Shown piece by piece: positions 7,287 through 55,447 of a DNA stretch of 64,000 nt (its first letter is position 1; every line of letters begins with the position of its first letter). The DNA is taken from IMG/VR virus record IMGVR_UViG_3300026488_000246, positions 83,463 through 147,462 of that record; one strand, given 5' to 3'. The notes under the pieces were generated by a model. The model saw only the letters and a list, made by a program, of their open reading frames with translations. It searched no databases and was not told the origin of the DNA. Origin of the DNA: a virus. Lineage: Duplodnaviria > Heunggongvirae > Uroviricota > Caudoviricetes. A program made the translations under genes and the position numbers.

Positions 7287-7640
7287 ATGGTTTCTTTTCT
7301 ACATCCATCGAGTATAACTGCTTCAGCTCTAGTATGTGCTACTTTTAGAAAAGTTAAACCAGCTAAGACTAAATCGATAACGTTTCTTAGTATTAGCTTT
7401 GATGATCTAATACAACATTTAGAATTACATGCAGAAGAAACATATTGTCGTTCATCAGGTGTAAAGCTCTCGATACAAACAAATGGAAATCCATCTAGAT
7501 TAATTGCAGAATTAATAGCACCAAAAATGGATGAGGAGTATGTAAGTCGACGAGAATCACTACAAAGGGAACTTGAATTGCTTGGTTACACAATTGTAGA
7601 TGGGTTCAGCATGAAACAGTTAGACCTAACCTTATTGTAA
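7287..7640 (+). CDS. small protein, divergent member of the TNSS N-motif family (paralog of 7681..8016)
   Basis: RBS GGAGG. Shares VRPAKTK...ISF.ELIQ.LELHAEE...RESLQ.ELELLG with the next gene. N-terminus SFLHPSSITAS. Confidence 0.6.
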   Translation: MVSFLHPSSITASALVCATFRKVKPAKTKSITFLSISFDDLIQHLELHAEETYCRSSGVKLSIQTNGNPSRLIAELIAPKMDEEYVSRRESLQRELELLGYTIVDGFSMKQLDLTLL

Positions 7641-7664
7641 CCATATACAACTTGAAACGTTTCC
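7621..7664 (+). promoter_or_regulatory. intergenic cassette A (short variant)
   Basis: CCTAACCTTAT...CTTGAAACGTTTCC. Overlaps the stop codon of the upstream gene. Confidence 0.45.
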
Positions 7665-7680
7665 GTGATACGGAGGTTTC

Positions 7681-8016
7681 ATGAGATCTTTAAACTCATC
7701 ATTCATTACAAACAGTAGCACAACTGTTACTTTCGTTAGATTAAGAAGAGTTAGACCAGCTAAAACCAAAATGATAACAATGTTGAATATTTCGTTTGAA
7801 GAATTAATTCAACAACATCTTGAGTTACATGCAGAGGAAGCAGTAGATGGCTTTGGTTCACAAATTATTGTTGAAACTGTAGAAGAACCAAGATTACTTG
7901 CTAGGCTATGCTCCACTAGTGTTTACTCTGAATATGAAGATAAACGAGAATCTTTACAAAAAGAACTAGAGCTACTTGGTTTTTCAGTGATTGATGAGGT
8001 CTCTGTTGATTGTTAG
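7681..8016 (+). CDS. small protein of the TNSS N-motif family
   Basis: N-terminus MRSLNSSFITNSSTTVTFV. Confidence 0.7.
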   Translation: MRSLNSSFITNSSTTVTFVRLRRVRPAKTKMITMLNISFEELIQQHLELHAEEAVDGFGSQIIVETVEEPRLLARLCSTSVYSEYEDKRESLQKELELLGFSVIDEVSVDC

Positions 8017-8060
8017 TTACCTAACCTTATACTATTTTTGTTAATTTAGAAACGTTTCCA
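8014..8060 (+). promoter_or_regulatory. intergenic cassette A
   Basis: TAGTTACCTAACCTTATA...TTAGAAACGTTTCCACCAATGGAGG. Confidence 0.5.
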
Positions 8061-8077
8061 CCAATGGAGGTTGCATA

Positions 8078-9289
8078 ATGTATCAAATCATAGTAAAGGA
8101 TAAGGATACAAACCAACTCTATAGGCTAAGCTATACAACTTACAGGAAAATGAAAGAGAATCCTGATTATCATTTATCGTATCCAGGGTTAGGACCAGTG
8201 ATTTCATCAAAAGAATTCTTTGATAAATTTGAAATAGTAGGTCCTACAACAGCTAAGGTTGATTATCCAACTATTAAGCAATGGTTGTATCAATCTGCTA
8301 GTTGTAAAGGACAGTATGTAATAGCGGAAGATAACGAAGGTAATAGTTATGTAACCTATGCACACACAACACTAGGTAAGCAAATTATCCAATTTATAAA
8401 AGGTGAAACTGATAGAATCTTGTATTATGGTCAAGATGTAACGGATATCATCAAACATCTTAATTTTCGGTTTCTAACTCATACTCAATATAGTAAATGG
8501 AAACAAGATAAGGAAGTGAAGCCACTTAGAACCTTCATATCTACCAAACTTGGTATACGTCCTTCTGTGGATGTTGAAAAACTTTTTCACCATTTCTTTT
8601 TCAAATCAAAGCTTACAGGTAAAACGTATACCTTATCCATTAACTACACCAGGAATGATTTTGATCATAGGCTAAGCTTTGAGGAAGTATACTATAAGAA
8701 ATGCCCTGCATGGCTCAAAATTCGCATTTCACCAAAGCTATTCTTATCTTTATTTGAATTCACGGGTGAAGAGTTTTATGGAATGAGATCTAGACCTATG
8801 CATTATCCATCTTTATTTGAATCTGATGAAGCTTTATCTATTCGTCATAATAGACTCTATGATCCACAATTAGATATGGTAATCAACCTCAAAGATAATC
8901 GTTGTGTCATAGATTGGTTGTTTAAAGGCGAATTTGTGAAGTATGGTGTAGCATTCAAACATACAGTTTCACACTTTAACGTTATAACCAAAGAAATTCT
9001 TAGCAAAAAGAAAGCTTTAACATTCTACAACTATTATCTGCTTCGTGGACTACATGAGAAAGATCTACCTTCCATAACAAAGCTTAATAGACCAATGGAT
9101 GAGTTTTATGTTTATCTTGTACTTAAGAATGGTAGAATCTTAAAGCATGCTGTTGTAGCTAAGCATATTTCACAAGTTTATCATAAACATAAGGAAATGT
9201 TGGATAGCATTATAGTTTTCAAAGTAGCAGGACGTTTCAATTATCTTGAAGGTAAAATCAAAGAGGTTCGTAAATGTTTGTTGAAGTAG
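8078..9289 (+). CDS. hypothetical protein
   Basis: 403-aa ORF directly downstream of cassette A and its embedded RBS. Confidence 0.7.
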   Translation: MYQIIVKDKDTNQLYRLSYTTYRKMKENPDYHLSYPGLGPVISSKEFFDKFEIVGPTTAKVDYPTIKQWLYQSASCKGQYVIAEDNEGNSYVTYAHTTLGKQIIQFIKGETDRILYYGQDVTDIIKHLNFRFLTHTQYSKWKQDKEVKPLRTFISTKLGIRPSVDVEKLFHHFFFKSKLTGKTYTLSINYTRNDFDHRLSFEEVYYKKCPAWLKIRISPKLFLSLFEFTGEEFYGMRSRPMHYPSLFESDEALSIRHNRLYDPQLDMVINLKDNRCVIDWLFKGEFVKYGVAFKHTVSHFNVITKEILSKKKALTFYNYYLLRGLHEKDLPSITKLNRPMDEFYVYLVLKNGRILKHAVVAKHISQVYHKHKEMLDSIIVFKVAGRFNYLEGKIKEVRKCLLK

Positions 9290-9660
9290 GTTTGCTTAGA
9301 TGCTCTAGACCTTTACCCATGAAACATAGGGGATCTTTGTGGATCCCTGTTGCCTCTATATTTCGACGTTTCAAACATAATGTTTTGCTGTTTTACAATA
9401 CGTTTATATATGAACCTATAACTACCTTTAAGCAATACGGAATTTTCTATAACTTAGGATCTATTATGGACGAGGATTGTCAGCGATTTATTGCCATTAA
9501 TGCTAAATCCCATGAAAAGTTTCTTAAGTTTTATAGAGAAACTAGGCATGAGGATTCATGGTCACAATTTGTTTACAAAAGTATTAAAACTTTACCTGAT
9601 TTCTTGCTAGAATTCAATGTTGAAAAACAATGTTTTGAGAGGTTTGAAATTGGTTGTTGA
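9274..9660 (+). CDS. hypothetical protein
   Basis: ORF with GAGGT RBS. Overlaps its neighbours. Confidence 0.45.
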   Translation: MFVEVGLLRCSRPLPMKHRGSLWIPVASIFRRFKHNVLLFYNTFIYEPITTFKQYGIFYNLGSIMDEDCQRFIAINAKSHEKFLKFYRETRHEDSWSQFVYKSIKTLPDFLLEFNVEKQCFERFEIGC

Positions 9661-10165
9661 AGGAGACGCATATGCAACAGTTGATATCATAAAACTTTAC
9701 AGGAAACTATCACCAGAACCAAACAGATTCATTCAGCTCTCAGATTCCAATCCTTTGAAAGATTTAGGATTGCTTGCAATGTACTATCGAAAGGGTCGTT
9801 ACTATTTAGCAGATCCTGAATATCCCGATTATGAGATTACTTGTCCATTAAGTTTATGGGAAAAGTCAAAACAATATTACACACGCATATCAACTTTACT
9901 CATATATGTTATTGATGAGTATGAGACCGTACTGAAGAAGGACTACGATCTAACACTAGATTATTGGCCATACTTCGTTTGCAGAAAGCATTATGAGCTT
10001 TATGGTCCTTATACACCTTTACGAGTTGTTTTCAAGTTTAATTCTAATGGTTGGTTAAAGGATATCCAAGTTACTGGTCTTGAAGGCAGTCAATATGAAC
10101 AAGACACAAAACAACCAACATCTTTCATAAGCAAAGTTAAAAGGTTCTTGCGAGGCGTGCTATGA
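9617..10165 (+). CDS. hypothetical protein (start uncertain)
   Basis: 182-aa ORF. No clear RBS. Confidence 0.4.
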   Translation: MLKNNVLRGLKLVVEGDAYATVDIIKLYRKLSPEPNRFIQLSDSNPLKDLGLLAMYYRKGRYYLADPEYPDYEITCPLSLWEKSKQYYTRISTLLIYVIDEYETVLKKDYDLTLDYWPYFVCRKHYELYGPYTPLRVVFKFNSNGWLKDIQVTGLEGSQYEQDTKQPTSFISKVKRFLRGVL

Positions 10166-10683: not shown

Positions 10684-10727
10684 AAACTTTTATTTCCAAC
10701 TATGAAAATCATACATGAGGTGTAAGA

Positions 10728-11678: not shown

Positions 11679-11694
11679 CGAGAGGAATACTAAC

Positions 11695-12096: not shown

Positions 12097-12111
12097 AGTA
12101 TGAGGTAGCTT

Positions 12112-12471
12112 ATGATCTCCACAGTTTGCAGATCATTTGTGACTAATTCTAGCACATCTACGACTATTGTTTACTTTCAAAAAGTAGGACCTATAGATGC
12201 AGAAGAAGTAAGGAATACGCTTCCAGAACCTTTCAAAAAGTATGCTGATGATATTATCAAAGCTTTGTTATCCATAAGAGCAGCTGAAGTATTTGTTGTG
12301 ATTGAGTATGATAACTATGGGATTATGTCTTATATAATCAGCAAATGTCCAAGAAAGCAATATAGTCCACTTGTAACGATTCCTGGTGGTTACATAGATG
12401 AACGTTTACAGGATTGCTTTCAGAAACTGAAAGGTTTAAGACTTGTTGATTCTTATAGCTTTATACACTAG
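12112..12471 (+). CDS. small protein of the TNSS N-motif family
   Basis: N-terminus MISTVCRSFVTNSSTSTTIVYF. Immediately upstream of a radical SAM gene. Confidence 0.7.
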   Translation: MISTVCRSFVTNSSTSTTIVYFQKVGPIDAEEVRNTLPEPFKKYADDIIKALLSIRAAEVFVVIEYDNYGIMSYIISKCPRKQYSPLVTIPGGYIDERLQDCFQKLKGLRLVDSYSFIH

Positions 12472-12485
12472 GATGGGAGGTTCTA

Positions 12486-13556
12486 ATGAAAATTGGATAT
12501 GGAGTTAACTGGTTTCTTACAAGAAAATGTAATCTAAAGTGCTCCTATTGTGCAGTAATCAATATGAAAACGTTTCAGGAAGCTTATGGTCACATTGATC
12601 CATTCAAACAAGATGTTGATATTGAAGAAGCTAAAGAATTCATCAAAAGATTAAAGAAGCATAATCCAGATGCATTTCATATGTTTTTGGGTGGTGAACC
12701 TACTGTTTACAAGCATCTTGTAGAATTGGTTGATTTCTGTAACAAAGAAGGTGTATTGTATACTGTCATTACAAATATGACCGATTACTCTTACAACAAA
12801 CTTAAGCAGATTATAGATGAAGTGGGATATCTTAATGGACTAAGCTTTACTGTTGATCCCGTTCTATGGGATGAAAACTATCCGAAGGATGATGATAGAT
12901 ACAGAAAATCAAAGGAAGCTTACGAGAAATTCATAACATTTAGAGATGATCCCAGAATCAGAGAATTTGTTGGTATAGTTGGAGTTGATAGTCAGAATAT
13001 CAAATATCTGCATAGAATGTGTGACGATCTAACTAAAGCTGGTGTTTGGATAGATCTGATTCTGCTTGAAACAAAGCTTAATAAGTACTACGATTTCCCA
13101 TCACCATTAGACTATGATTTACTGGTTTGGGATACAGAGAAACATAGAAAGATTCTTATGGAAGTTTACGAGAAAGCTGAAAAGGGAGAATACACTGTAT
13201 TATTCCATCCTGTAATCAAATACAAAATGGTTCCTAATCTTCCACAAAAGTATATTTGCACCATTGATAAAAGAATGGACACCATGACTATTGATGCTGA
13301 TGGAAAACTAAGGCTATGTTTAAGAATCAGAGGAGTTAAAACACAAGAATTTCATATGCTTGATATTCTTGATGAAAACGGAAATCTAACTGATAAGTTT
13401 CAAGAAGCTCTTAAAGCTATGCAATGGGATAAAAAGAATTTCTGTTATGGATGTCAATGGACATGCCCTATGGCTGGTGAATTGATTGCTGATGGTATTA
13501 TGAGTCCAGAATTGATGAATCATAGAAACATAGAAATTCAACCAAAAACAAAATAA
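12486..13556 (+). CDS. radical SAM enzyme, SPASM-like
   Basis: CxxxCxxC motif (CNLKCSYC). FLGGEPT motif. C-terminal NFCYGCQWTCPMAG. Confidence 0.75.
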   Translation: MKIGYGVNWFLTRKCNLKCSYCAVINMKTFQEAYGHIDPFKQDVDIEEAKEFIKRLKKHNPDAFHMFLGGEPTVYKHLVELVDFCNKEGVLYTVITNMTDYSYNKLKQIIDEVGYLNGLSFTVDPVLWDENYPKDDDRYRKSKEAYEKFITFRDDPRIREFVGIVGVDSQNIKYLHRMCDDLTKAGVWIDLILLETKLNKYYDFPSPLDYDLLVWDTEKHRKILMEVYEKAEKGEYTVLFHPVIKYKMVPNLPQKYICTIDKRMDTMTIDADGKLRLCLRIRGVKTQEFHMLDILDENGNLTDKFQEALKAMQWDKKNFCYGCQWTCPMAGELIADGIMSPELMNHRNIEIQPKTK

Positions 13557-13569: not shown

Positions 13570-14745
13570 ATGAATAGCGTTAAAGAAACATACAGAAACG
13601 TCAACATATTTATTGACGATAGCAATCATGGATTTCTTCAGGGTATAACTTCAGATCATAATGGTAATGTAATCGTGTGTGGTCATGATGAAGATTTCAT
13701 CAGTTTGCGTATAACTAAATTCGATAACGTTTTAAGGGATGTTAAACAAGAAATAGTTTTAAGAGATGAAAAATGCAAATATTTTTACGGGATAACAGTT
13801 GACTCTGATAACGTATTTGTATGCGGTATGATTGACTATGATTTCTGCATTGTTAAGCTTAATAGTAGTCTAAATCTGATTAAGCAAGTAATAGTAGATA
13901 TTGGGGAAGCAACAGCCAGCTATGGAATGGCTACAGACTATAATGGAAATGTGTTTGTATGTGGGTCTCATGACAAAGATTTCTACATAGCTAAGCTGAA
14001 TAACGATTTGAATATTGTTAAACAGATAACCATTAACAATGATGGAGATGGAATTTTTCGAAATCTAGCTACGGACTGTAATGGAAACGTGTTTGTATGT
14101 GGTTACATTAATACCGGTATACTAAACAACGGCCTTTATATAGCGAAGTTTGATAATGATTTGAATGTCATCAAACAGATGGTAATCGAAAGTGGTAAAC
14201 GTAGTTATCTTATCGGAATAACTATTGATGATAACGGAAACGTATTTGTATGTGGGAAGACTTGTAATGAATGTTATGTGGCTAAGATCGCTAATGATTT
14301 AAATCATATTAAACAAATAGCAATCAATGGTGGTAAGAAAACCGATTTTCATGGGATTTCTACAGATCCTCATGGAAATGTATTCGTATGTGGACAAACC
14401 AAAGAGAATCTTAGTTCGAACTTATGCGTTGCAAAATTTGATAACAATCTACTTCTTGTTAAGCATGTTGTATGTGCTTGTGATGGAGTAACAATCAGTC
14501 GTGACGGACTAACAATTGATTCTAATGGTAACGTATTTACATGTGGGACATTTCATAGTGATTTCGTTAATACTCCCTTCATAATTAAATTCAATGATAA
14601 CCTTGATTATCCTGATAAGTTGAAAGCTGGTTCTTATACATTCACCTTTAGTGAACCAACTTGGATTTCTACTGTACAAGATTATCCTGTTACAGTAGAA
14701 AACTGGGTTCCCATTATTCAGAACTGGATACCACGAGTGGTATAG
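13570..14745 (+). CDS. beta-propeller repeat protein (NGNVFVCG / IAKFDNDLN repeats), fibre-like
   Basis: About 9 repeats of roughly 40 aa. C-terminal SYTFTFSEPTW...W..Q.W module shared with 14765 and 19827. Confidence 0.65.
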   Translation: MNSVKETYRNVNIFIDDSNHGFLQGITSDHNGNVIVCGHDEDFISLRITKFDNVLRDVKQEIVLRDEKCKYFYGITVDSDNVFVCGMIDYDFCIVKLNSSLNLIKQVIVDIGEATASYGMATDYNGNVFVCGSHDKDFYIAKLNNDLNIVKQITINNDGDGIFRNLATDCNGNVFVCGYINTGILNNGLYIAKFDNDLNVIKQMVIESGKRSYLIGITIDDNGNVFVCGKTCNECYVAKIANDLNHIKQIAINGGKKTDFHGISTDPHGNVFVCGQTKENLSSNLCVAKFDNNLLLVKHVVCACDGVTISRDGLTIDSNGNVFTCGTFHSDFVNTPFIIKFNDNLDYPDKLKAGSYTFTFSEPTWISTVQDYPVTVENWVPIIQNWIPRVV

Positions 14746-14764: not shown

Positions 14765-15991
14765 ATGGAGAAAATGAACAAAGCTACAGAACCATATGAA
14801 AGTGTCAGTGTATTTACTGGCAACAACGTTGAATATAATAATCTTCTTGGTATGGTTACAGATCATGATGAAAATGTGTTTATATGTGGAGAGGTTTTTG
14901 TTAAACGATGGTTCAGAGCTGGTTTCGATATTGTTAAATTTGATAGCACTTTAAACTTCATCAAATATATAGCAATAGGAAATAATGAATACAACATTGA
15001 ACTGCATGGAATGATAGCAGACGGTACTGGTATCATATTTGTTTGTGGAGAAATTGGTAATCATTATAACGACGATTTCTACATAGCTAAACTTGATGGT
15101 AATTTAAATCTTGTTAAGCAAATTGCTATCAATAGTGGTAAACCATATAATCGTCTTTATGGAGTAACAGTAGACTCCAATGGGAACGTGATCGTTTGTG
15201 GAAGTACTAATGATGGTCACTACTATAATGGTTATATTGCTAAATTCGATAACGATTTAAATCCAGTTAAGCAAATTACTATCGACGATAGATATTGTGG
15301 TGATCTTTATGGGATAGCCGTTGATTCCAATGATAACATATTTGTTTGCGGTGCCACGAAAGGTAAACCCTACGTTGCCAAACTTGATAATAAACTAAAT
15401 GTTATCAAACAGATATCCATTGATATTGGTGAACCTGGCTACCTCAATAAGGTGACCATTAGTTCCAGTAATAATGTTTTCATAGGTGGTATCTACGATG
15501 GGCATATTTATGTAGCTAGATTTGACGATGATTTGAACCTTATTAAACAAGTTACTATTAATACTGGAACTAATAATAGCTTTTACAGTTTCGCTGTAAA
15601 CTCTTACGATGATCTATTTATATATGGGCGAATTAAGAACTATCCTGATTGGGACTTCTATATCGCAAAACTTGATAATGAGTTATTTCTTCTTAGACAA
15701 GCAATTATTGATGGTGGTCATCATGTTACTTTACCTTTAAAGGATGAAATACTTGTATGCAGACGAAGTATCACTTATTCTGCTGATAATATGCTTATAG
15801 CTAAATTCGACAAAAACTTAAGTAATCCTAGTGTATTGAAAACAGGTTCTTATACATTTACTTTTAGTGAACCAACATGGTTAGTGATTGTACAGGATTG
15901 GCCTGTCATAACAGAAGATTGGGTTCCTACTGTACAGAATTGGGCACCACGAGCGGCAAACAGTTTCATTGTAACTGAAGAGTTCGCATAG
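14765..15991 (+). CDS. beta-propeller repeat protein, paralog of 13570
   Basis: Same repeat unit and C-terminal module. Confidence 0.65.
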   Translation: MEKMNKATEPYESVSVFTGNNVEYNNLLGMVTDHDENVFICGEVFVKRWFRAGFDIVKFDSTLNFIKYIAIGNNEYNIELHGMIADGTGIIFVCGEIGNHYNDDFYIAKLDGNLNLVKQIAINSGKPYNRLYGVTVDSNGNVIVCGSTNDGHYYNGYIAKFDNDLNPVKQITIDDRYCGDLYGIAVDSNDNIFVCGATKGKPYVAKLDNKLNVIKQISIDIGEPGYLNKVTISSSNNVFIGGIYDGHIYVARFDDDLNLIKQVTINTGTNNSFYSFAVNSYDDLFIYGRIKNYPDWDFYIAKLDNELFLLRQAIIDGGHHVTLPLKDEILVCRRSITYSADNMLIAKFDKNLSNPSVLKTGSYTFTFSEPTWLVIVQDWPVITEDWVPTVQNWAPRAANSFIVTEEFA

Positions 15992-19826: not shown

Positions 19827-22800
19827 TTACTCAGTCCATAAGTCAACTTGAAATCTATCAACATAAACGTCTTTATCACCATTAATAACTAGTCTTAGAT
19901 ACCTAGCATTCTTAGATATATCTTTATAAGTCATAGTTACCCAATCTGAGTTGTAAGTGTAAGTTTGGGATTCAATTGGTTTAGTATTCTTAGGTATTAC
20001 GACCTTTGTTATTGAAGTAAGTTCTTCTTTTGTTATGATTTTGACTTCTCCAATACCTCTTCTATCGTAGTAGTAATCTACTTCATTAGGTGTAAATGAA
20101 ACTGGTTGTGGAGACCAACTTTGTGTGGTGGGTGTCCATGATTGTGTAGCAGGTGACCAACTCTGTGTAGTAGGTGCCCATGATGGTTCATTAAATGTAA
20201 ATGTATAAGAACCTACTGTTACTGAATTAGGATGATCTAAATCATTATTAAATTTAGCTATGTAGAAATTCCGATGGCTATTATGAATATCATAAACATA
20301 ACCACATACGAATATATTACCATTGGAATCAGTTGTTACACCTTGAAAAATTTCATCATTTGTACTATCAATAGTAATCTGTTTAATTAGGTTTAAATCG
20401 TTGTCAAATTTAGCTATATAGGAATCGTCATTAGAACCATTATAAGTGCGCCCGCATACGAATACATTGTTATTGGAATCTGTTGTTATTCTGTAAAGAT
20501 TATCATTTCTACTACTTTCAATAGTTATTTGCTTAATAAGATTCAAATCATTATCAAATTTTGCAACATAGAAATTATAATCTGAGGAATTGCTATAACT
20601 ATGTCCACATACAAATACATTATCATAAGAATCTGTAATTATTCCATGACAAATATCTGAATTGCCGCTATTAATTGTTATCTGTTTAATGAGATTTAAA
20701 TTGTTATCAAATTTTGCAATATAGAAATTCAAAACAGAACCATTATAAGTATCGCCACATACAAATATATTACCATTAGAATCTACAGTAATATCATAAA
20801 GATGATCAACATAACCACTATTAATAGTTATTTGTTTAATTAGGTTTAAGTCATTATCAAATTTAGCTATGTAGAAATCTTCATTAAAACCGCATACAAA
20901 TATATTACCATTGGAATCTGTAGTTATTCCATGAAATTCATCACCTTTACCACTGTCTACAACAATATGTTTAACAAGATTTAAACTGTTATCAAATTTT
21001 GTAATGTAAAATTCCAAGCGAGAATCATTATCAGCATCAACTTGCCCGCATACAAATACATTATCATTGGAGTCTACAACTATATCTAAGAACCTACTAT
21101 AAGACTTATCAATGATTATTTGCTTAGTAATGTTGAAATGATTGTCAAATTTTGCTATATATGCTTTATTATCTAAGTTCCCACATACAAATACATTATT
21201 GTTAGAATCTGTTACTATTCCGTAAAGCTGACCTTGCTTACTATCATTCCCAACCACAAAAGTTCCTAGTTCCTTCACAACTTCAACTTTTGATACTTCC
21301 TTATCTTCATCATTAACCTTTATAACATCTCCAGATCTTACTAAATCCTTATCTAGTTCTTTAACGACTACATAATTGTTTCCAGTTTTGATTATCTGAG
21401 AAGTAACATCTAAATCTTTCCAAGTACATCTCTCATAAACATCTTCAAATGCAAATTCTACTCTTATGCTATTTTCTTTGTATATATCTGATGGTGGATT
21501 TTTGAGATTAAGAGAAGATATATCAACTTTATAGACATTTTCCTTAACTGTGTAAGAACCTTTATCCCAAGTATAAGATACTTCTGTTGGAGCCCAAGAT
21601 TGAGTAGTAGGAGACCAACTTTGAGTTGTTGGTGCCCATGATTGTGTAGTAGGTAACCAAATTTGATCAGTTGTAGTCAAATCCGGTTCAGTAAATAAAA
21701 ATGAATAAGACCCAACTGTTATTGAACTTGGATGATCAAGGTTATTGTTAAATTTAGCTACAAAGAAATCATAATTAGAACTGTCTCCTATATATCCACA
21801 TACAAATATATCACCAGTAGAGTCTATAACTATATCTCTTGGTATATCATGTTTTCCACTATTTATTTGAATCTGCCTGATTAAATTCAAATTGCTATCA
21901 AATTTAGCTATGTAAAAGTCTTTATTAGAACCATTATCAATACTACCGCATGCAAAAATATTTCCTTCAGAATCAATTGTTAATCCGAGTAATTCACCTC
22001 CCATATTTTCAATGGTGGCTTGTTTAATCAAGTTCAAATCATTATCAAATTTAGCTACATAAAGTCCTCTATCATGATCATTATGAGTATGACCGCATAC
22101 AAATACATTACCATTGGAATCTGTAACTATACCAACGAGTATAGCATAAACTCTAGCGTCAATAGTTATTTGCTTAATAAGATTCAAATCATTATCAAAC
22201 TTACCTATGTAGAAATCTTGATCAGAACCATTATAAGTATATCCACATACGAATACATTTCCGTTAAAATCAATAGTTATATTGTAAAGCCAATCATTAG
22301 TGTTGTTTATAGTTATTTGCTTAATAAGATTCAAATCATTATCAAACTTACCTATGTAGAAACTGTTATTGGTATGACCACATACAAATACATTATTATT
22401 GGAATCTATTGTTATTCCAAGAAATTCTTCACTGTTACCGCCATCTACAATAACTTGTTTAACTAAATTCAAATTGTTATCGAATTTAGCTACATAGAAA
22501 TCTTCTTTAGAACCATTACGAGTATATCCACATACAAATATGTTTCCATTAGAATCCGTTGTTATTCCTTGAAGATAATCAATGTAACCGCTATCAATAG
22601 TAACTTGTTTAACCAGATTTAAGTCATTATCAAGTTTAGCTATGTAAAAATCCTGGTTGGGACCATTATTAATACAACCACATACAAATATATTACCATT
22701 GGAATCAGTTGTTATTCCATAGAGATAATCATCTTTACCGCTGTCACCAACAGCCATATAATACTCAACATTTTCAGTAGTTTCTTCAATCTTATTTACA

Positions 22801-23018
22801 ATTAATGGCTTTATATCTGAACCTTCTCTTACTAATATCTTTTGGCCAACTTCAAGCTTATCATTTTTATAGGTGAAATAATCAGTAGTTGCTTCTGTAA
22901 TTTTAACTTTAAGAGGTTTACAAGTAAGATTAACTCTTGCTCTTTTCCAATCTGGTTCGTTTGATTCTTGTTTGAAAACTTTAGAAACCCATTTTGCATT
23001 ATCTTTTAATGCTTTCAT
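19827..23018 (-). CDS. large fibre-like structural protein with duplicated beta-propeller arrays and PTTQSW hexapeptide repeats
   Basis: 1063 aa. Two blocks of about 8 NGN(I/V)FVCG repeats. Each block is followed by (A/S)PTTQSW x3-4. C-terminus YVDRFQVDLWTE is shared with 23074. Confidence 0.7.
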   Translation of the reverse strand: MKALKDNAKWVSKVFKQESNEPDWKRARVNLTCKPLKVKITEATTDYFTYKNDKLEVGQKILVREGSDIKPLIVNKIEETTENVEYYMAVGDSGKDDYLYGITTDSNGNIFVCGCINNGPNQDFYIAKLDNDLNLVKQVTIDSGYIDYLQGITTDSNGNIFVCGYTRNGSKEDFYVAKFDNNLNLVKQVIVDGGNSEEFLGITIDSNNNVFVCGHTNNSFYIGKFDNDLNLIKQITINNTNDWLYNITIDFNGNVFVCGYTYNGSDQDFYIGKFDNDLNLIKQITIDARVYAILVGIVTDSNGNVFVCGHTHNDHDRGLYVAKFDNDLNLIKQATIENMGGELLGLTIDSEGNIFACGSIDNGSNKDFYIAKFDSNLNLIRQIQINSGKHDIPRDIVIDSTGDIFVCGYIGDSSNYDFFVAKFNNNLDHPSSITVGSYSFLFTEPDLTTTDQIWLPTTQSWAPTTQSWSPTTQSWAPTEVSYTWDKGSYTVKENVYKVDISSLNLKNPPSDIYKENSIRVEFAFEDVYERCTWKDLDVTSQIIKTGNNYVVVKELDKDLVRSGDVIKVNDEDKEVSKVEVVKELGTFVVGNDSKQGQLYGIVTDSNNNVFVCGNLDNKAYIAKFDNHFNITKQIIIDKSYSRFLDIVVDSNDNVFVCGQVDADNDSRLEFYITKFDNSLNLVKHIVVDSGKGDEFHGITTDSNGNIFVCGFNEDFYIAKFDNDLNLIKQITINSGYVDHLYDITVDSNGNIFVCGDTYNGSVLNFYIAKFDNNLNLIKQITINSGNSDICHGIITDSYDNVFVCGHSYSNSSDYNFYVAKFDNDLNLIKQITIESSRNDNLYRITTDSNNNVFVCGRTYNGSNDDSYIAKFDNDLNLIKQITIDSTNDEIFQGVTTDSNGNIFVCGYVYDIHNSHRNFYIAKFNNDLDHPNSVTVGSYTFTFNEPSWAPTTQSWSPATQSWTPTTQSWSPQPVSFTPNEVDYYYDRRGIGEVKIITKEELTSITKVVIPKNTKPIESQTYTYNSDWVTMTYKDISKNARYLRLVINGDKDVYVDRFQVDLWTE

Positions 23019-38345: not shown

Positions 38346-38756
38346 ATGTCAACAAAAACTCCTTTCTTAACAACAGATAACTTAGAAACAACCTTAAAAG
38401 ATATACTACAAGTTCCATACATCATCAATATACTTATATCAGGAGCACCTGGTATTGGTAAATCTGAAATCACATATCAAGTAGCAAAAGACTTAGATCT
38501 AAAAGTTTTTGAAGTTAGACTTTACGAAGAAGGAGAAACTGCTGTAGGTTTACCAAAGCTTAACGAAGAAACTACTGAATTTAGCAAACCATGGTGGTTT
38601 AAAGACTTGGAACAAGGTGATTATGATATACTCTTTCTTGATGACTTTCACCTTGTTCCAGCAACATTACAAAGCTATTTATATAGATTCTTAACTGATA
38701 GAACTTTGCATAACTATAAGCTTAACAAGAATATCTTGCTCCATATTGTAACATAA
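38346..38756 (+). pseudogene. truncated paralog of the MoxR-like AAA ATPase (62513..63583), ending at the IS607 insertion
   Basis: Collinear with the intact paralog (ISGAPGIGKSEITYQV...LFLDDFHLVP...SYLYRFLT) up to residue 136. Stops 30 nt before tnpA. Confidence 0.55.
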
Positions 38757-38787: not shown

Positions 38788-39450
38788 ATGTATACACTAG
38801 AAGAATTTTCAAAACTTACAGGATTGAGCAAAGATACATTAAGACAATACGACAAAATTCTTCAACCTTATCGTACTCCAGGAGGTCATAGAAGATATAC
38901 AGATGAGCATCTTGCAAAACTTTATCAGTTAAACATGATTAACAAAGATCATAAGATTCAAGCCATAGTTTATGCTAGAGTTTCCACAAAATCTCAACTA
39001 AAAGATCTCAAAAGACAAGTTGAAGCTTTACTTTCATTTGCTTCAAGTAAAGGCATCATAGTTGACGAAATAATACAAGATATTGGTAGCAGCATAAACT
39101 TTTCCAGACCAGGTCTTGAAAAACTTATAAGACTTCTTTTAATGAGGAAACCTGAGTATCTGATAGTTGCAACAAGAGACAGACTAACAAGAATTGGGTT
39201 TGAAATCTTTGAGCAAATATGTAAAACAACGGGTACAAAATTGCTGATCCTGTACGATGATTTGCAAGCTGACGATTATGATCCAGTTAAGAAAACTGTT
39301 GAAGAGTTAGTTCATATTGTTCATCTGTATGCAATGAAACTTTATGGACAAAGAAGTTACAAAAAGATCAAGCAACTTGAAAATGAGGTGCTTAAGAATG
39401 TATCAGGTTTTGACGATTCGAATCAAAGGGAAGAAGAAACGAATTCTTAA
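38788..39450 (+). CDS. tnpA: IS607-type serine recombinase/resolvase (MerR-like HTH N-terminus)
   Basis: RBS GGAGGA. Catalytic region YARVSTKSQ. HTH region EEFSKLTGLSKDTLRQY. Confidence 0.7.
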   Translation: MYTLEEFSKLTGLSKDTLRQYDKILQPYRTPGGHRRYTDEHLAKLYQLNMINKDHKIQAIVYARVSTKSQLKDLKRQVEALLSFASSKGIIVDEIIQDIGSSINFSRPGLEKLIRLLLMRKPEYLIVATRDRLTRIGFEIFEQICKTTGTKLLILYDDLQADDYDPVKKTVEELVHIVHLYAMKLYGQRSYKKIKQLENEVLKNVSGFDDSNQREEETNS

Positions 39451-40720
39451 AGAATTCATGGAAACAGTGTTCTCACTTAGAATCAAACTGTTCAGATTCT
39501 TATCACGATTGGCAGATGAGTCTCATCTGCCAATCTTCTTCAATACTTACAAACTAGAGAAATTCTTTGCTAGAAACCCAAAGGTTGATAAGCTTGATTA
39601 CGACTTGTATTCTTTTATAGAAAGACATTATTACACAGAATGGTGGAAGTTGCTTTACGAATTGCGTCAATTACCACAAATGGTTGTTTATGGTTTAGTT
39701 AGACAATGGGTGCAAGCTTTCAAATCTTGCATTACTAAGAGAAAACAAGGTTTAAAAGCTTCTTTACCTGGAGTACGCAAACCAAATAGCATAGCAATTG
39801 ACATTGATGGTTTACTACTAGAAGTTGATAATTCCTTGGTAACGCTAAAACTTTCAAGATGTTTAAAGTTACATTGGAAGATACCAGATAACATAGAAAA
39901 CGTTACATCGTGTCAAATTGTGTATTTCAGATACATTGATGAATTAGAATTAAGAATTCGTTATCAGATCCAACCAGAATCAGCAAATGTTAGCTTACAA
40001 AACTGGCTTTCAATCGACTTAGGAGTAAATAACTTAGTAAGTGCTATTTCGAATACTGGACCAAGCTTTATCATATCATCAGGATGGATTACATCTCTTT
40101 TGAACTGGGCATACGATAAGATTTCAATATCTCAATCTTTCGGATTTGAGAAAATGAGAAAACGAATCTATGCATACTTAAAACGACGCATACATACTAA
40201 TCTCCATCAACTTACATCAAAGATAATTGAATATTGTTTACAATACTCAATTGGTGTGATATTCATAGGTCAGAATGTGATTGATTCTATAAGAAACTCC
40301 AAACAAAACAAATCTATCTCAAAACAGTTAAGATGGATATTAGGCAAACTACCATTTGGAAAGTTTGTACAGATGCTTAAAGCTAAAGCTGAAAAATTTG
40401 GCATACAAGTACAACTTGTTAATGAATCTTATACATCCAAAGCATCTGCATTAGATGACGAACCTATTAAACAAGAAACATATTCGATCAAAAGAATTCA
40501 AAGAGGATTAGTTAAGTCAGATAAGAATGAAGTCTGGAATGCTGATCTTAATGCTTGTTTAAACATTGCTAAGAAAGCAAAGGTACTTTCAAGTACCGAA
40601 GTGAAACAAAACAGACATTTTTGGTTAAGAAAACTTTCTAACACATTGAAATTCACATTTGGAAAACTCTTGAAATACAGCTGGTGTAACCAACCATATT
40701 GGTTGGTAGCCAGTAGTTGA
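39398..40720 (+). CDS. tnpB: TnpB (RuvC-like RNA-guided nuclease family, IS200/IS605/IS607 OrfB)
   Basis: N-terminus MYQVLTIRIKG. RuvC-III motif NADLNACLNIAKKA. Zn-finger region present. Confidence 0.7.
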   Translation: MYQVLTIRIKGKKKRILKEFMETVFSLRIKLFRFLSRLADESHLPIFFNTYKLEKFFARNPKVDKLDYDLYSFIERHYYTEWWKLLYELRQLPQMVVYGLVRQWVQAFKSCITKRKQGLKASLPGVRKPNSIAIDIDGLLLEVDNSLVTLKLSRCLKLHWKIPDNIENVTSCQIVYFRYIDELELRIRYQIQPESANVSLQNWLSIDLGVNNLVSAISNTGPSFIISSGWITSLLNWAYDKISISQSFGFEKMRKRIYAYLKRRIHTNLHQLTSKIIEYCLQYSIGVIFIGQNVIDSIRNSKQNKSISKQLRWILGKLPFGKFVQMLKAKAEKFGIQVQLVNESYTSKASALDDEPIKQETYSIKRIQRGLVKSDKNEVWNADLNACLNIAKKAKVLSSTEVKQNRHFWLRKLSNTLKFTFGKLLKYSWCNQPYWLVASS

Positions 40721-43274: not shown

Positions 43275-43643
43275 ATGAAATCTATCTCAATGACATATGT
43301 AACGAATAGCTCAACTTTAACATGCATTGTTATCGTAAGAAAGGATATAGATCTACCAACTTATGAAGAGATTAAGGATGAATTAACAAAATCTTTTGAC
43401 AAGTTTTTCAGAAACTATCCGGAAGATTTTAAGGAAGAAATTAAGTTGAAACTTCGAGATATGTATGATTTCATGAGACATGAGATTACAACCAGCAAAG
43501 ATGAATATGTCATGTTTGACATTCGTGCAATCGAGGGTGGGTCTTTGATAGATCAAGATTCACCAGCTGTTTATGCTTTAGCTTTTGTTGTACATCAGGT
43601 TCTTGCTAAATGTGGATATATTTACGAATATGAAAGACATTGA
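43275..43643 (+). CDS. small protein of the TNSS N-motif family
   Basis: N-terminus MKSISMTYVTNSSTLTCIVIV. Confidence 0.7.
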   Translation: MKSISMTYVTNSSTLTCIVIVRKDIDLPTYEEIKDELTKSFDKFFRNYPEDFKEEIKLKLRDMYDFMRHEITTSKDEYVMFDIRAIEGGSLIDQDSPAVYALAFVVHQVLAKCGYIYEYERH

Positions 43644-43749: not shown

Positions 43750-44154
43750 ATGATTACATTTCAAACAGGATTCATAACGAATAGTTCTACTGAAGCTTTG
43801 GTTATAATTTTCCCGAAAGAGAATCATCAATGCATCAAAGCGCTCCTTGAAAATGTTGATACTATAGATTGGAAAACAAAACTCGACAATTCTGTTGTAG
43901 CTAAGAAGCTTAAGCATATAGGTCATTCATACTATGATCATCTGAAGGAAAACATTCAGTCTATAGTAAAGGATGTTGCAACAAAGCTTTCCTCGAAACT
44001 TGACGACCAATCTAACGTACTGATAGACATAGAAGTAGATGTTGATGGATGTGCATATGAAAGTCCAGAATCCAACTATTATACATTCGTAGCTCTTGAA
44101 TTACTAACACAAATGCTTTCTGAGTATGTATATACAACAATGGAGTATCGTTAA
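43750..44154 (+). CDS. small protein of the TNSS N-motif family
   Basis: N-terminus MITFQTGFITNSSTEALVIIF. Confidence 0.7.
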   Translation: MITFQTGFITNSSTEALVIIFPKENHQCIKALLENVDTIDWKTKLDNSVVAKKLKHIGHSYYDHLKENIQSIVKDVATKLSSKLDDQSNVLIDIEVDVDGCAYESPESNYYTFVALELLTQMLSEYVYTTMEYR

Positions 44155-47315: not shown

Positions 47316-47669
47316 ATGGTTAATTATACAATAGCAGTTTTCATTAATGACAAACGTAAGGCTTTAGTTTCTCTTAATCATGAGCAATTAGATATTGATG
47401 CTCTTTTGTTTTACGCGAAGAACCTGAATCTATTCTACACACCAGCCTTAAAACTGATTGAGTATCACAAGGACGGAATTCAACTCATTATAGATAATCT
47501 TCTCAACAAACTAATTAATCTGATTGAAGAAAGTGATTCATCATTCATTGTATCTGTGCAAACCAGTTATAGTTTTCAAGAAGATGATAAGTTATGTTTA
47601 CAGGAATATATTATGTCATTTATGTTTGCAAAACTAGCTTTAGATTCTTTCCCCTACGTTGTTTACTGA
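47316..47669 (+). CDS. hypothetical protein
   Basis: RBS GAGGAG. Confidence 0.6.
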   Translation: MVNYTIAVFINDKRKALVSLNHEQLDIDALLFYAKNLNLFYTPALKLIEYHKDGIQLIIDNLLNKLINLIEESDSSFIVSVQTSYSFQEDDKLCLQEYIMSFMFAKLALDSFPYVVY

Positions 47670-48182: not shown

Positions 48183-48584
48183 ATGCAACATGTAACTGTT
48201 GGATTCATAACTAACAGTTCAACACTTGTATCGGTCATTTACATCCATTCAGAAAGAGACAGAAAACTTGTGAAGCAATGTATTCTTCATGGATTTCCAG
48301 ACGATCTAAGAGCTTCTATGAAAACAATGCTTAAAGATCTTGATTTAAGCCATCATAATGATTTAGTTGAATTCATTTACGATTGGTTAGATAAGCATGG
48401 GGAAGATTATATCATAGATCAACTACTGAAACAAATTGAAACAGAAAGATCTATCTATGCTTATGCTCATGCTGATGATTCTGCTTGTGATGGTTATGAT
48501 AATCCAGGTGAGTATTGGTTCTACCTGGTTATAAATTACATCTTGGAAGTTTATGACTTGAAAGGTGGGGTTTATTGTAAGTAA
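48183..48584 (+). CDS. small protein of the TNSS N-motif family
   Basis: N-terminus MQHVTVGFITNSSTLVSVIYI. Confidence 0.7.
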   Translation: MQHVTVGFITNSSTLVSVIYIHSERDRKLVKQCILHGFPDDLRASMKTMLKDLDLSHHNDLVEFIYDWLDKHGEDYIIDQLLKQIETERSIYAYAHADDSACDGYDNPGEYWFYLVINYILEVYDLKGGVYCK

Positions 48585-48598: not shown

Positions 48599-49015
48599 AT
48601 GGTTAGTATTTCTCAATCTTTTGTGACAAACAGTTCCAATTTCGTATTATCTTTACTTGTTACACCTCAAATCAAGCAAAAAGTTATCAAACATTTGTTA
48701 CACATTCCAGATTGGAAGTTTATAGTGAATAAAGTTGATAAGTATTTCAACTTTGTTGACTATCCCGAAACTATTCAGAAGTTGTTTGACCAATTAGATC
48801 AGAAAGACGAACTTCAAGAACTACTTTCTAATCATGCACAAAAGCTTATTGATCAACTAGAGAAAAATGAAGAATGTATTGTTATAGAAATTCAAACTAG
48901 TAGATTCTATGGATCGGAACAACCAAGAGAGAAAGACATAAAAGAATATGCGATGGCTCTTTTATTGACATATCTTGCATTAGGTGGAATACCGTTTAAG
49001 GAGATGACCTTATGA
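48599..49015 (+). CDS. small protein of the TNSS N-motif family
   Basis: N-terminus MVSISQSFVTNSSNFVLSLLV. Confidence 0.7.
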   Translation: MVSISQSFVTNSSNFVLSLLVTPQIKQKVIKHLLHIPDWKFIVNKVDKYFNFVDYPETIQKLFDQLDQKDELQELLSNHAQKLIDQLEKNEECIVIEIQTSRFYGSEQPREKDIKEYAMALLLTYLALGGIPFKEMTL

Positions 49016-49581: not shown

Positions 49582-49585
49582 AAAC

Positions 49586-49987: not shown

Positions 49988-49995
49988 CACTGATG

Positions 49996-50020: not shown

Positions 50021-50080
50021 AGGGATAGGATAGGTGTTTATCCTATCCCTCGAAAATACAACTGTTTTAGGAGGTGTGAG

Positions 50081-50269: not shown

Positions 50270-50334
50270 TCTGTTTCACCCCCTCCCTTGGGGGATTCTT
50301 TTCTTCGAAATTATTGCTTAAAAGGAGTGTAAGA

Positions 50335-50751
50335 ATGAAAAGCATATCATTCAATTTTATTGCAAATTCTTCAATCTCTGTTACGATGATCACTTTTAAG
50401 AAGAAACAAGATTCTGAAATTCAAGATCTACAGACTTATTTCGATACTCATTTCAGTCAAATTACTAACGTATCTAATCAGTCTATAGAAACAATCAAGA
50501 GAGCACTTTCAAAAATTCATAAGTATGTAAGCACGATAAATGATGAACAGCACAAAGTGGTGATTGAAGAAAGAAGATTAGGGATCAATGTAAAAATTGA
50601 TGGAGATCATATCACGGATCTAACCCAGCAAGCAGATATCGATTTACATACAGATACTGTTAACGCCATAATACATATGTTTGAAGATAAAGGATACGAA
50701 ATTGAAGATTTTGACATTTACGGTGAAGGACCTTCGTTGGACAGACATTGA
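50335..50751 (+). CDS. small protein of the TNSS N-motif family
   Basis: N-terminus MKSISFNFIANSSISVTMITF. RBS AAGGAG. Confidence 0.7.
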   Translation: MKSISFNFIANSSISVTMITFKKKQDSEIQDLQTYFDTHFSQITNVSNQSIETIKRALSKIHKYVSTINDEQHKVVIEERRLGINVKIDGDHITDLTQQADIDLHTDTVNAIIHMFEDKGYEIEDFDIYGEGPSLDRH

Positions 50752-50797
50752 TAGAAATTAAGTTTCTAAAAAATGAAAACAAATTGGGAGGATGATT

Positions 50798-51235
50798 GTG
50801 AAATCTCTAACTCTTGGTTTCACAACTAACTCTTCTTCTGTATGTAAAGTAATCATATTTCAAAAGAAATCTTCATCCAATCTTAAAGATGTAGATTTCT
50901 ACTTCAAGAAACACTTTGAAGAAACTCTCAACTCGTGGAAACAAGAAGGTTGCATTAACAAAGAGTTAAGGAATGAGTTGGAAAGCTCCATCAGAAAAAC
51001 TTTATCCTCATTCATTGATGTTATCCAGAAGTCATCCTCGGATATCATATATGTCAGACAACAATCGGACTACTTTGATATTAACAACCAATTTTCCTCA
51101 CAATTGACGGAATTAGGGCCGGACGAAATTGAAATGCTTACAGAAGCTCTAGAAGAAATGCTATGTGATGCTGGTTATATTAAAAAGCTAACTATTACGA
51201 GTGATGATTGGCCCAACATAGAACAACACGATTAA
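50798..51235 (+). CDS. small protein of the TNSS N-motif family (GTG start)
   Basis: N-terminus VKSLTLGFTTNSSSVCKVIIF. RBS GGGAGG 6 nt upstream of the GTG. Confidence 0.65.
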   Translation: MKSLTLGFTTNSSSVCKVIIFQKKSSSNLKDVDFYFKKHFEETLNSWKQEGCINKELRNELESSIRKTLSSFIDVIQKSSSDIIYVRQQSDYFDINNQFSSQLTELGPDEIEMLTEALEEMLCDAGYIKKLTITSDDWPNIEQHD

Positions 51236-51257
51236 TGAATAAAGAGGAGGTAAGCAT

Positions 51258-52640: not shown

Positions 52641-52681
52641 TGACAAGCTATCTGAATGTTTTTGCTAGGAAGAGGTGAGAA

Positions 52682-53128
52682 ATGCTCAGCTACAGATTCG
52701 AAAATAACGGTTCTTTAGTTCAAGTTTATCCTTTGGATGAAAGGTCATATATTGCATTACTTGACATATTAACCTATCTAGGTTTTCACTGGCTTGAAGG
52801 TCAAAAACCTAACACATGGATTCCAGAAAGATTAGGATATCTTACACTTAATACAACGGAGAAATGGCTTAGGTACACATATGATAATGCGAAACTATTT
52901 TTAGAACAAACAGTTCCACTTTTAGAAAGTCTTGGATTCATAAAAGGAACGCGTAGACAATACGAGAATCCAGCTTTCGAATCATTCATACTTCTAGATG
53001 AATGCCAGCTTAAATCAATCAGCGCTCTCATGAAAGACTTCCGTAGTTTAGCAGAAACATCTCCACAAATTTCATTTGATGAAAATACTTTAGGTGATCT
53101 TCTGGAGAGTGAGACAATGGTTGTTTAG
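52682..53128 (+). CDS. hypothetical protein
   Basis: RBS AAGAGGTG. Confidence 0.6.
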   Translation: MLSYRFENNGSLVQVYPLDERSYIALLDILTYLGFHWLEGQKPNTWIPERLGYLTLNTTEKWLRYTYDNAKLFLEQTVPLLESLGFIKGTRRQYENPAFESFILLDECQLKSISALMKDFRSLAETSPQISFDENTLGDLLESETMVV

Positions 53129-53150
53129 AAATGACAAAGGGAGGTAGATA

Positions 53151-54317: not shown

Positions 54318-54353
54318 AAGACTAGTGTAAACTAATAAACAAGGAGGATCATC

Positions 54354-54602
54354 ATGAGAAAAGTACTTCTCGTGGTACTTCTAGGGTGTCTCTTAAGCGC
54401 ACCATCTTATGCTAGTGTATGGCAAACTCAATGTGCAGGATGCCACAATGGGTCTTTAGCACCAAGTAAGACTCAACTGAAAGCTAAGTATTCCAAAAAC
54501 GAGTTTGTTAAGAGAGCATTAGAATCAAGCAATCCTATGATGTCTGCTTTCAAAAACAACAAAGATGTTATTCAGAAAGCTGCTGATGAATTATACAAGT
54601 AG
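54354..54602 (+). CDS. small secreted mono-haem c-type cytochrome-like protein
   Basis: Signal peptide MRKVLLVVLLGCLLSAPSYA. CxxCH haem-binding motif (CAGCH). Downstream Met residues (NPMMSAF). Confidence 0.5.
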   Translation: MRKVLLVVLLGCLLSAPSYASVWQTQCAGCHNGSLAPSKTQLKAKYSKNEFVKRALESSNPMMSAFKNNKDVIQKAADELYK

Positions 54603-54615
54603 CAAGGAGATGAAT

Positions 54616-54924
54616 ATGAAACTTGTATGCCCTAAATGTGGTACACCCATAACAAAAGATACGTTATTTGTAAACGTTGATTTTGTGTTAGGTATTCCTA
54701 TTTACTCTAAAGCATTTGGATACAAGGATGGTAAGGTTGTGGAAGTAGAGGAATTTTGCGAACCTGATATATCTGGAGTTGGAAGCATAGAATTCATCTG
54801 TAAGAAGTGTAATTCCCCATTGGAATCTAAAGAGTTGCATGACATATATGAGAAAGTTTATGATGAATCAGATTGTGATTATGTAGCAGCCATAAAAGCT
54901 GTTTACGAAAGTTTAGAAGAATAA
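54616..54924 (+). CDS. zinc-ribbon protein
   Basis: CPKCGT...CKKCNSP. RBS AAGGAG. Confidence 0.5.
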   Translation: MKLVCPKCGTPITKDTLFVNVDFVLGIPIYSKAFGYKDGKVVEVEEFCEPDISGVGSIEFICKKCNSPLESKELHDIYEKVYDESDCDYVAAIKAVYESLEE

Positions 54925-54941
54925 GAGTTTCAATAGCAACA

Positions 54942-54968
54942 GGGAGGGTCAAGAATCCCTCCCTTTTC
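54942..54968 (+). terminator. rho-independent terminator
   Basis: GGGAGGG ... CCCTCCC, then TTTT. Confidence 0.65.
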
Positions 54969-55000
54969 CCCACAAAACTAAAGAAAAAGGAGGTAGAACC

Positions 55001-55447
55001 ATGAGGAGTTGCTCTGTTGGATTCGTAACTAACAGCTCAAGCTATGTTGCTTGTATCATTTATTCTGGTAAGTTTGACAAAGAGAAGTTTGATGCATTTA
55101 GCAAAAACATACTCAATCACAAGTGGATGAGCGACGAGTTTAAAAATGATGAAACTGTCAAGCAAATCACACCTGTAATCATTGAGAAACTTAAGAGAAT
55201 CTTGGAACCATCCACAACAGTAACTTTTGCATTTGAAAATATGTACGGAAATCCACCACATTGCACAATTGCAGGATGTGATGGTGTGCTTGATATTCGA
55301 GATTACTTTCCAGAAGAATGGTTTGAAAGTATGGATAGTGCACCAGAAATGTGGCTAACTAATGGTTACTGGTTCTGCGATCAACTTGAAAATCTACTAC
55401 AAGAATCTGGATTCACTATTCCAAAAGTTGTGTTTGACTTCCGTTAA
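55001..55447 (+). CDS. small protein of the TNSS N-motif family
   Basis: N-terminus MRSCSVGFVTNSSSYVACIIY. Confidence 0.7.
   Translation: MRSCSVGFVTNSSSYVACIIYSGKFDKEKFDAFSKNILNHKWMSDEFKNDETVKQITPVIIEKLKRILEPSTTVTFAFENMYGNPPHCTIAGCDGVLDIRDYFPEEWFESMDSAPEMWLTNGYWFCDQLENLLQESGFTIPKVVFDFR

Follow-up and report, generated by a model that had tools for sequence, protein, structure and literature searches.

A family of small open reading frames (ORFs) beginning with the same short, serine-rich peptide, here called the tag, lies in a 64,000-nucleotide stretch of DNA (the window; positions 83,463 to 147,462 of IMG/VR virus record IMGVR_UViG_3300026488_000246) from the 162-kb contig of a large T4-like phage. 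The tag recurs at the N-terminus of diverse small proteins encoded beside genes for radical S-adenosylmethionine (SAM) enzymes of two types, each represented once in the window, as RS1 and RS2. That the tag is functionally coupled to a radical SAM enzyme in some way seems likely, and on balance it is best read as a recognition handle, and probably a modification site, for the co-encoded enzyme or enzymes, so that one enzyme would serve many diversified protein substrates.

The original prediction, made from the letters of the window, named at least ten such ORFs, and all ten are present, on the plus strand, with lengths of 111-148 aa and a GGAG-type Shine-Dalgarno sequence ahead of each. Nine carry the core [FY]-[IVT]-[TA]-N-S-S at residues 8-13, within an N-terminus that can be written M-x-S-h-S-x-(G/S/T/N)-[FY]-[IVT]-[TA]-N-S-S-[STNI]. 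The tenth, 7287 (ORFs are named by their first nucleotide), is indeed the divergent member it had been taken for: its tag has decayed to F-L-H-P-S-S, its C-terminus still matches that of 7681 (phmmer E 4e-21; BLASTP 47% over 108 aa), and its ortholog is retained in a 99%-identical relative (L297, contig Ga0256838_1001491). Six-frame translation of the window gives the six-residue core ten times, nine of these being N-terminal in ORFs of 90 codons or more, and across 400 shuffles of the window the core arose on average 1.2-1.35 times anywhere and 0 times at an N-terminus. Selection acts on the peptide and not on the DNA or RNA, as had been proposed, because the N-S-S codons differ between copies: where residues are identical the codon identity is 33%, with the Asn and Ser codons varying from copy to copy. 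Shine-Dalgarno spacing favours the GTG start of 50798, and it is this start that puts 50798 in the register of the family. Searching all six frames with a profile built on the ten proteins recovered an eleventh paralog, 47316, which lacks the tag (family hidden Markov model E 3e-4) and whose C-terminus matches that of 48599 (phmmer E 3e-7, BLASTP E 1e-9). In two orthologs of 55001 (P0005 and P0007) the first 19 residues are retained and the remainder has diverged. The relative L297 also has a third tandem copy (P0014, 2122-2457) after its ortholog of 7681 (window 7681-8078), and therefore tandem copy number differs between near-identical genomes.

Tagged ORFs, their tag-less paralog and the two radical SAM genes of the window (positions in the window)
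Feature	Positions	Strand	Description
RS1	6103..7164	+	anSME/SPASM-like "RS1" family radical SAM enzyme; Pfam Radical_SAM; presumed partner or maturase
7287	7287..7640	+	Decayed-tag member (F-L-H-P-S-S-I-T), paralog of 7681
7681	7681..8016	+	Tagged member MRSLNSSFITNSST, second gene after RS1
12112	12112..12471	+	Tagged member MISTVCRSFVTNSSTS, immediately upstream of RS2
RS2	12486..13556	+	Second radical SAM enzyme; C-terminal Cys motif CYGCQWTCP; Pfam Radical_SAM, Fer4_12
43275	43275..43643	+	Tagged member MKSISMTYVTNSST
43750	43750..44154	+	Tagged member MITFQTGFITNSST; protein chosen for AlphaFold2 modelling
47316	47316..47669	+	Tag-less paralog of 48599; F-I-N-D-K-R replaces F-V-T-N-S-S
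48183	48183..48584	+	Tagged member MQHVTVGFITNSST
48599	48599..49015	+	Tagged member MVSISQSFVTNSSN
50335	50335..50751	+	Tagged member MKSISFNFIANSSI; A instead of T before Asn
50798	50798..51235	+	Tagged member VKSLTLGFTTNSSS; GTG start
55001	55001..55447	+	Tagged member MRSCSVGFVTNSSS

Adjacency of tagged and radical SAM genes, from which the original prediction had argued for an enzyme-recognition tag, is real: 7287 starts 123 nt after the end of RS1, and RS2 starts 15 nt after the stop of 12112, giving the gene orders RS1-7287-7681 and 12112-RS2. The first order is repeated on a 3.4-kb contig (L002), where two tagged ORFs come directly after the gene of an enzyme with 50% identity to RS1, and 1-8 tagged ORFs come after each of the more distant RS1 homologs in L003, L004, L005, L084, L101, L102, L104 and L300. 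L101 accounts for the array of eight tandem tagged ORFs, and at L221 there are ten. Across IMG/VR loci with an RS1-type gene, 75 of 80 have tagged ORFs within 6 kb, and all 291 tagged ORFs in those 75 are on the strand of the enzyme gene, 290 downstream of it and one upstream. As a control, 44 phage loci (415 kb) around unrelated radical SAM genes contained zero tagged ORFs. With RS2-type genes the link is found in 13 of 25 IMG/VR loci, where same-strand tagged ORFs lie mostly upstream, as in the window, and L103/L213, among other RS2 loci, likewise have the tagged ORF ahead of the RS2 homolog. GenBank phages yield 175 records with a tagged protein of the type of KP27_130 from Klebsiella phage KP27 and 172 with an RS1-type enzyme, in the same genera and in near-identical counts per host genus.

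The association extends to cells. When 185,579 species genomes were scanned with nothing but the tag pattern, 315 loci were confirmed, mostly in anaerobic Firmicutes, and among the best 80 of these 315 an RS1-family gene adjoins the tag in 70 (E 1e-61 to 1e-151), several of the ten exceptions ending at a contig edge. Their usual layout is a two-gene operon in which a single tagged gene of about 124 aa lies directly upstream of the enzyme gene, sometimes overlapping it. When neighbouring genes were clustered, the only other recurrent neighbour was a small helix-turn-helix (HTH) gene (18 loci). Among the bacterial loci (L217-L296), the operon of anaerobic Firmicutes is compact (for example L257 6001-7473, L250 6001-7473 and L222 5557-7505), and the HTH gene often stands ahead of it. 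The surroundings vary (L257 has a restriction-modification system nearby, L250 a type I-E Cascade), and the operon could be a mobile defence-type or toxin-type module. Taken together the loci span enzyme identities of 23%-99% and come from phages, bacteria and one Asgard-archaeal bin. In that bin (L273, a 63-kb contig of a Promethearchaeota metagenome-assembled genome) six tagged ORFs flank an RS1-type gene, and the contig could be a virus, a provirus or a binning artefact.

Variants of the tag also track the clade of the enzyme. At RS1 loci position 4 is R (100% in phages, 93% in bacteria) and positions 14-15 are S-S, at RS2 loci position 4 is K (100%) and position 14 is T (61%), and the cysteine-depleted enzymes of the window and L002 co-occur with a shortened tag without K or R. 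The original interpretation as a whole is partly supported, and the reading it preferred, an enzyme-recognition tag, has strong backing from comparative genomics: phage and bacterial loci in their hundreds array the tag beside RS1- and RS2-type genes, always sharing their strand, with variants linked to the enzyme clade.

By sequence, the copies in the window form a divergent branch within a superfamily of small proteins that is large, uncharacterised and defined by a strictly N-terminal tag. Its general form is M-K-h-R-x-[DG]-F-V-T-N-S-S-S-S-S-[FY] and the window form M-x-S-h-S-x-G-F-[V/I]-T-N-S-S-[S/T]; a profile of the window form, searched against 1.84 billion representative proteins, found only 23 clusters, all beginning with the same tag. 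A logo of 513 occurrences (145 unique sequences) has M1, K2, R4, F7, V8, T9, N10 and S11-S15 near-invariant, with T-N-S-S-S conserved at 97-100%. Register is also kept, the Asn being residue 10 from the ATG in 389 of the 513 and residue 11 in the window type. The same tag begins phrog_7397, a family of unknown function that includes the KP27_130-type proteins and that a 168-aa protein of L005 matches over its full length (E 1.4e-13); from the window the best match to it is 43750, weak at E 0.15 and confined to residues 5-40. Examples from a cultured phage are KP27_130 and KP27_124, both annotated as hypothetical. Megablast and tblastn searches of GenBank phages with the window gave no match and no close relative. 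No paper describing the tag family or its radical SAM link was found in the literature, and PADLOC returned generic matches of the radical SAM core to pVip models only, with no model matching the tagged proteins. The tag and its radical SAM link thus seem new, in that no prior family model, defence-system model or paper was found for them, while their logic resembles known maturase-precursor systems. A glycyl-radical-type site was ruled out on the grounds that the Gly before Phe is not conserved (S/T/N in five window members, D in 70% of the superfamily), as was a prepilin-like or Sec-like signal, the tag having no hydrophobic core and D in place of G.

What follows the tag, here called the payload, is much less constant. 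The original prediction took the C-termini in the window to be unrelated, and with the first 24 residues removed this fails for several pairs: 7287 and 7681 match at E 1e-21, 48599 and 47316 at E 3e-7, and 50335 and 50798, weak by phmmer, are full-length paralogs (28% over 149 aa by BLASTP). A C-terminal profile built from metagenomic relatives only recovered 43750 (4e-12), 43275 (4e-10) and 48183 (5e-8), with 50798, 55001, 50335 and 48599 next in rank, all at E >0.01. The domain common to several window members has a second motif, E/C-D-V-D-G ... P-E-x-Y, and for the remaining members no C-terminal link was detectable by sequence comparison. For the wider superfamily the claim stands, hhalign finding nothing in common beyond the tag and first strand and, with the tag removed, no similarity between the window type and the KP27_130 type. 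The superfamily payloads are highly diverse, of 80-260 aa, and neither window members, wider family nor long payloads matched a family in Pfam, PHROGs, NCBIfam or PADLOC except phrog_7397, which covers one subfamily. The payloads are probably early host-takeover or counter-defence effectors.

Structure prediction separates tag from fold. The AlphaFold2 model of 43750 has a mean predicted local distance difference test score (pLDDT) of 86 and a predicted template modelling score of 0.82, and residues 1-10 fall below 50; its layout is a strand (14-21), a helical insert, a strand (90-97), a helix (106-122) and a strand (128-133). The model of the KP27_130 family (pLDDT 82.5) has the same strand-helices-strand-helix-strand topology, and there the invariant residues 1-10 average a pLDDT of 37. 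Searches of PDB and BFVD gave no significant fold match for either model, and because of the hhalign null homology of payloads across subfamilies is not claimed despite the alike predicted topologies. The most conserved part of these proteins is thus predicted to be a free peptide outside the fold. Such an arrangement fits the persistence of 7287 and 47316, whose sequences indicate that the fold can survive loss of the tag.

RS1 has the CxxxCxxC triad (C58/C62/C65) and an ALGGGE SAM-binding motif. The triad cysteines are invariant in nine aligned RS1-family members (alignment A5), at variable spacing. That spacing is CX3CX2C in the window, L002, L003 and L004, about CX8-10CX6-7C in gut-phage and bacterial forms and CX8CX2C in Klebsiella phage Matisse (examples of such genes are L005 4827-5945, L101 2249-3325 and L106 3405-4550), and in L084 (887-3174) the RS1-type gene is split by an intein (C...SHN|C) in the GG motif of the conserved SAM-binding sequence ALGGRGD. 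Wider members of the family (L101, L102, L104 and the bacterial enzymes) have the SPASM cysteines CX2CX5CX3C and reach 22-24 bits with TIGR04085 against a cut-off of 27, and the family has a conserved N-terminal extension rich in strand-like residues. Searched against PDB, the RS1-family profile gives anSME (4k36-4k39, E 5e-8) as its best full-length match and then SuiB, BtrN and PqqE. Of these solved relatives anSME, SuiB and PqqE are SPASM enzymes that modify proteins or peptides and BtrN is a dehydrogenase, which supports a maturase role. No equivalog or maturase model of NCBIfam reaches its cut-off with the enzymes, the sulfatase_rSAM model TIGR03942 scoring 22 bits with RS2 against a cut-off of 349 and not being among the best matches of RS1. 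RS2 is unrelated to RS1 beyond the radical SAM core. Its closest homolog, in L192 (3289-9679), lies among Gat-QueC-like (glutamine-amidotransferase/PP-loop), QueE-like radical SAM and DpdA-like genes, the large DpdA-like gene being so called by eye from motifs; the arrangement resembles a 7-deazaguanine DNA-modification cluster and its gene content hints at a nucleotide-related role for RS2.

If the tag is a handle for the enzyme, a flexible tag peptide would project from a small folded alpha/beta domain and be bound by the co-encoded radical SAM enzyme, in the window RS1 and for some members probably RS2. The T-N-S-S segment would be the likeliest site of action, where a hydroxyl-bearing side chain would lose a hydrogen atom to the enzyme, and the outcome, by analogy with the radical SAM dehydrogenases anSME and BtrN, might be conversion of Ser to formylglycine, or else a cross-link. 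We infer this chemistry because the hydroxyl residues are invariant and because the enzymes have an affinity to radical SAM dehydrogenases. One enzyme could so mature a whole set of diversified, fast-evolving payloads, as in multi-precursor clusters for peptides that are made on ribosomes and then modified post-translationally (RiPPs), except that here the substrates would be folded proteins.

Several known systems have parts of this logic. PqqE-PqqA, SuiB-SuiA, CteB-SCIFF and MftC-MftA likewise pair an enzyme of the SPASM/twitch branch, to which the CX2CX5CX3C of the wider RS1 family points, with one or more same-strand, substrate-like genes beside it, whose products have a conserved N-terminal part and a variable rest. 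They differ in that the candidate substrates here are folded proteins of 80-260 aa and not short peptides, that the conserved part is some 16 residues and probably includes the reaction site, and that no RiPP recognition element (RRE)/PqqD domain, protease or exporter is conserved near the tagged genes; the sole PqqD match, in one tagged protein, is sub-threshold (17 bits, cut-off 23.4). A RiPP is made from a short precursor with a removed leader, and the tagged proteins are instead confidently folded domains in the models. To anSME, the best full-length solved relative of the RS1 family, there is the further likeness that anSME's target, in a folded protein, is a Ser or Cys of a short motif close to the N-terminus, the tag here being Ser-rich, although the tag F-V-T-N-S-S-S-S-S-F has no Pro and no Arg after the serines and the payloads are not sulfatases. 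Prochlorosin-type systems employ one maturase, ProcM, for about 30 precursors with a common leader and hypervariable cores, and so share with the present system one enzyme for many substrates, a constant N-terminal recognition sequence and members both arrayed and dispersed. However, ProcM is a lanthipeptide synthetase, its substrates' leaders are long and cleaved, and its products are small peptides.

A number of observations weigh against the tag being a handle for a modifying enzyme. Adjacency is not universal: seven of the ten window members lie 30-48 kb from RS1 and RS2, and in Slopekviruses and the GenBank genomes counted above about 20-26 kb separate the tagged genes from the radical SAM gene. 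No tagged gene lies beside the closest RS2 homolog (L192, 65% identity). Phylogenetic independence of the loci is lacking too, many being from related gut phages. The enzymes of the window (RS1) and L002 have lost most of the SPASM auxiliary-cluster cysteines (AVGASL for GFDSCS; PSSFW for PCSF), and in window RS1 this could mean an altered or lost chemistry. The similarity to anSME is weak and the sulfatase motif C/S-x-P/A-x-R absent; no RRE was found in the enzymes, Pfam giving only Radical_SAM/Fer4_12 for RS1 and RS2. Finally, a strand that finds its pairing partner only on oligomerisation could also give the low N-terminal pLDDT.

Of the other explanations, the one to be taken most seriously, although rather unlikely in our view, is that the enzyme binds the tag and does not alter it. 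The tag would then be a docking peptide, for example a beta-strand added onto the enzyme's N-terminal extension, and the tagged proteins, themselves unmodified, would serve the radical SAM enzyme as exchangeable subunits (partners, specificity modules or regulators) that steer it to a nucleic acid, small molecule or host protein, or control it. Adjacency, the shared strand and the covariation of tag and enzyme clade also fit such docking, diversified payloads are what specificity modules would be expected to have, the strand-like residues of the RS1-family extension are conserved, and the closest RS2 homolog sits in the putative nucleotide-modification cluster. Yet up to ten partners per enzyme with no common payload sequence would be unusual for subunits, the conservation of hydroxyl residues through T-N-S-S-S is more like that of a reaction site than of a docking strand, and SPASM relatives act on the peptide they bind. 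Less probable again is that enzyme and tagged proteins merely serve the same pathway, the N-terminal strand and Ser-rich loop being a structural or functional element of the proteins' own that the enzyme does not bind, such as a strand for oligomerisation, or a loop that binds phosphate, a metal or a ligand in concert with an acidic D-x-D-G loop. In several subfamilies the tag does come together with an acidic loop and with His and Glu residues, all of them conserved: D145, E155, H156, S169 and H171 are invariant in the KP27_130 family, the window type has its E/C-D-V-D-G motif, and the two models are of one topology. But many subfamilies have only the tag in common, an internal structural motif would have no need of a fixed distance from Met1, residues 1-10 are unpacked in both models, the tag-less paralogs persist, and the covariation of tag and enzyme is left unexplained.

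The remaining alternatives seem very improbable. The original prediction had offered T4-like capsid targeting as one class that the layout might match, and a packaging or export signal, or a degradation tag, would account for a short constant N-terminal peptide on diverse small phage proteins, just as the T4 internal proteins IPI-III and Alt of a large myovirus share such a peptide while otherwise differing; the window does come from a large T4-like phage with virion genes. The capsid idea did not survive, as there is no (L/I)-x-E site for a prohead protease, nor any conserved Glu in or after the tag, and the tag is common in bacterial radical SAM two-gene operons without capsid or other virion genes. 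Export is opposed by the absence of a Sec-type hydrophobic core, and any targeting role leaves the tie to radical SAM genes without a reason. Modification by some other enzyme, through an N-glycan on the N-S-S sequon, O-glycosylation, or phosphate groups on the Ser run, is just as hard to credit: N-S-[ST] does fit an N-x-S/T sequon and the tag is rich in hydroxyl groups, but no glycosyltransferase or kinase recurs nearby, the recurrent neighbours being radical SAM and small HTH genes only.

Other products of the window include RNA ligase 1, a helicase of the UvrD type, a type II topoisomerase in split form and virion proteins, and duplicated small genes abound in the phage's early region. Just after RS2 come two tandem beta-propeller (SBBP repeat) proteins (13570-14745 and 14765-15991, plus strand), which share 38% identity between them and 42-44% with part of a 1063-aa virion structural protein (19827-23018, minus strand). 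A 136-aa ORF (38346-38756, plus strand) is 66% identical to the N-terminal part of a 367-aa AAA-type ATPase (phrog_1297; 62480-63583, plus strand) 24 kb away, and its position just upstream of a transposase gene (phrog_506; 39344-40720, plus strand) suggests a truncated duplicate made by a mobile element. Small plus-strand paralog pairs of unknown function (46670-47074/49586-49987, 26%; 61346-61729/62115-62510, 30%; E 1e-9) are interleaved with the tagged genes.

A more far-reaching proposal, which we put forward only tentatively and think less than probable, is that tag and enzyme define an unrecognised class of radical-SAM-matured proteins rather than peptides, in which an anSME-like enzyme oxidises or cross-links T-N-S-S(S), for instance to the aldehyde of formylglycine, and so arms small, diversifying effectors. 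Bacteria would keep the minimal two-gene form in variable or defence-type regions, and in phages it would have grown to up to ten substrates per enzyme, serving host takeover or counter-defence.

Human-gut phages and anaerobic Firmicutes have the system, and so do cultured T4-like phages (Klebsiella KP27 and Matisse; Escherichia RB16, RB43 and Lw1); because these last are genetically tractable, the chemistry and the biological role of the system are both directly testable. Should recognition of the tag by the radical SAM enzyme prove true, several hundred hypothetical small proteins of phages and bacteria would gain a handle linked to function, and a widespread radical SAM system would be defined, one with folded proteins as substrates, each carrying a 16-residue tag at its N-terminus. 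RiPP-type logic, with one maturase for many tagged substrates, would then extend to whole proteins, and a new post-translational modification in the conflict of phage and host might be revealed.

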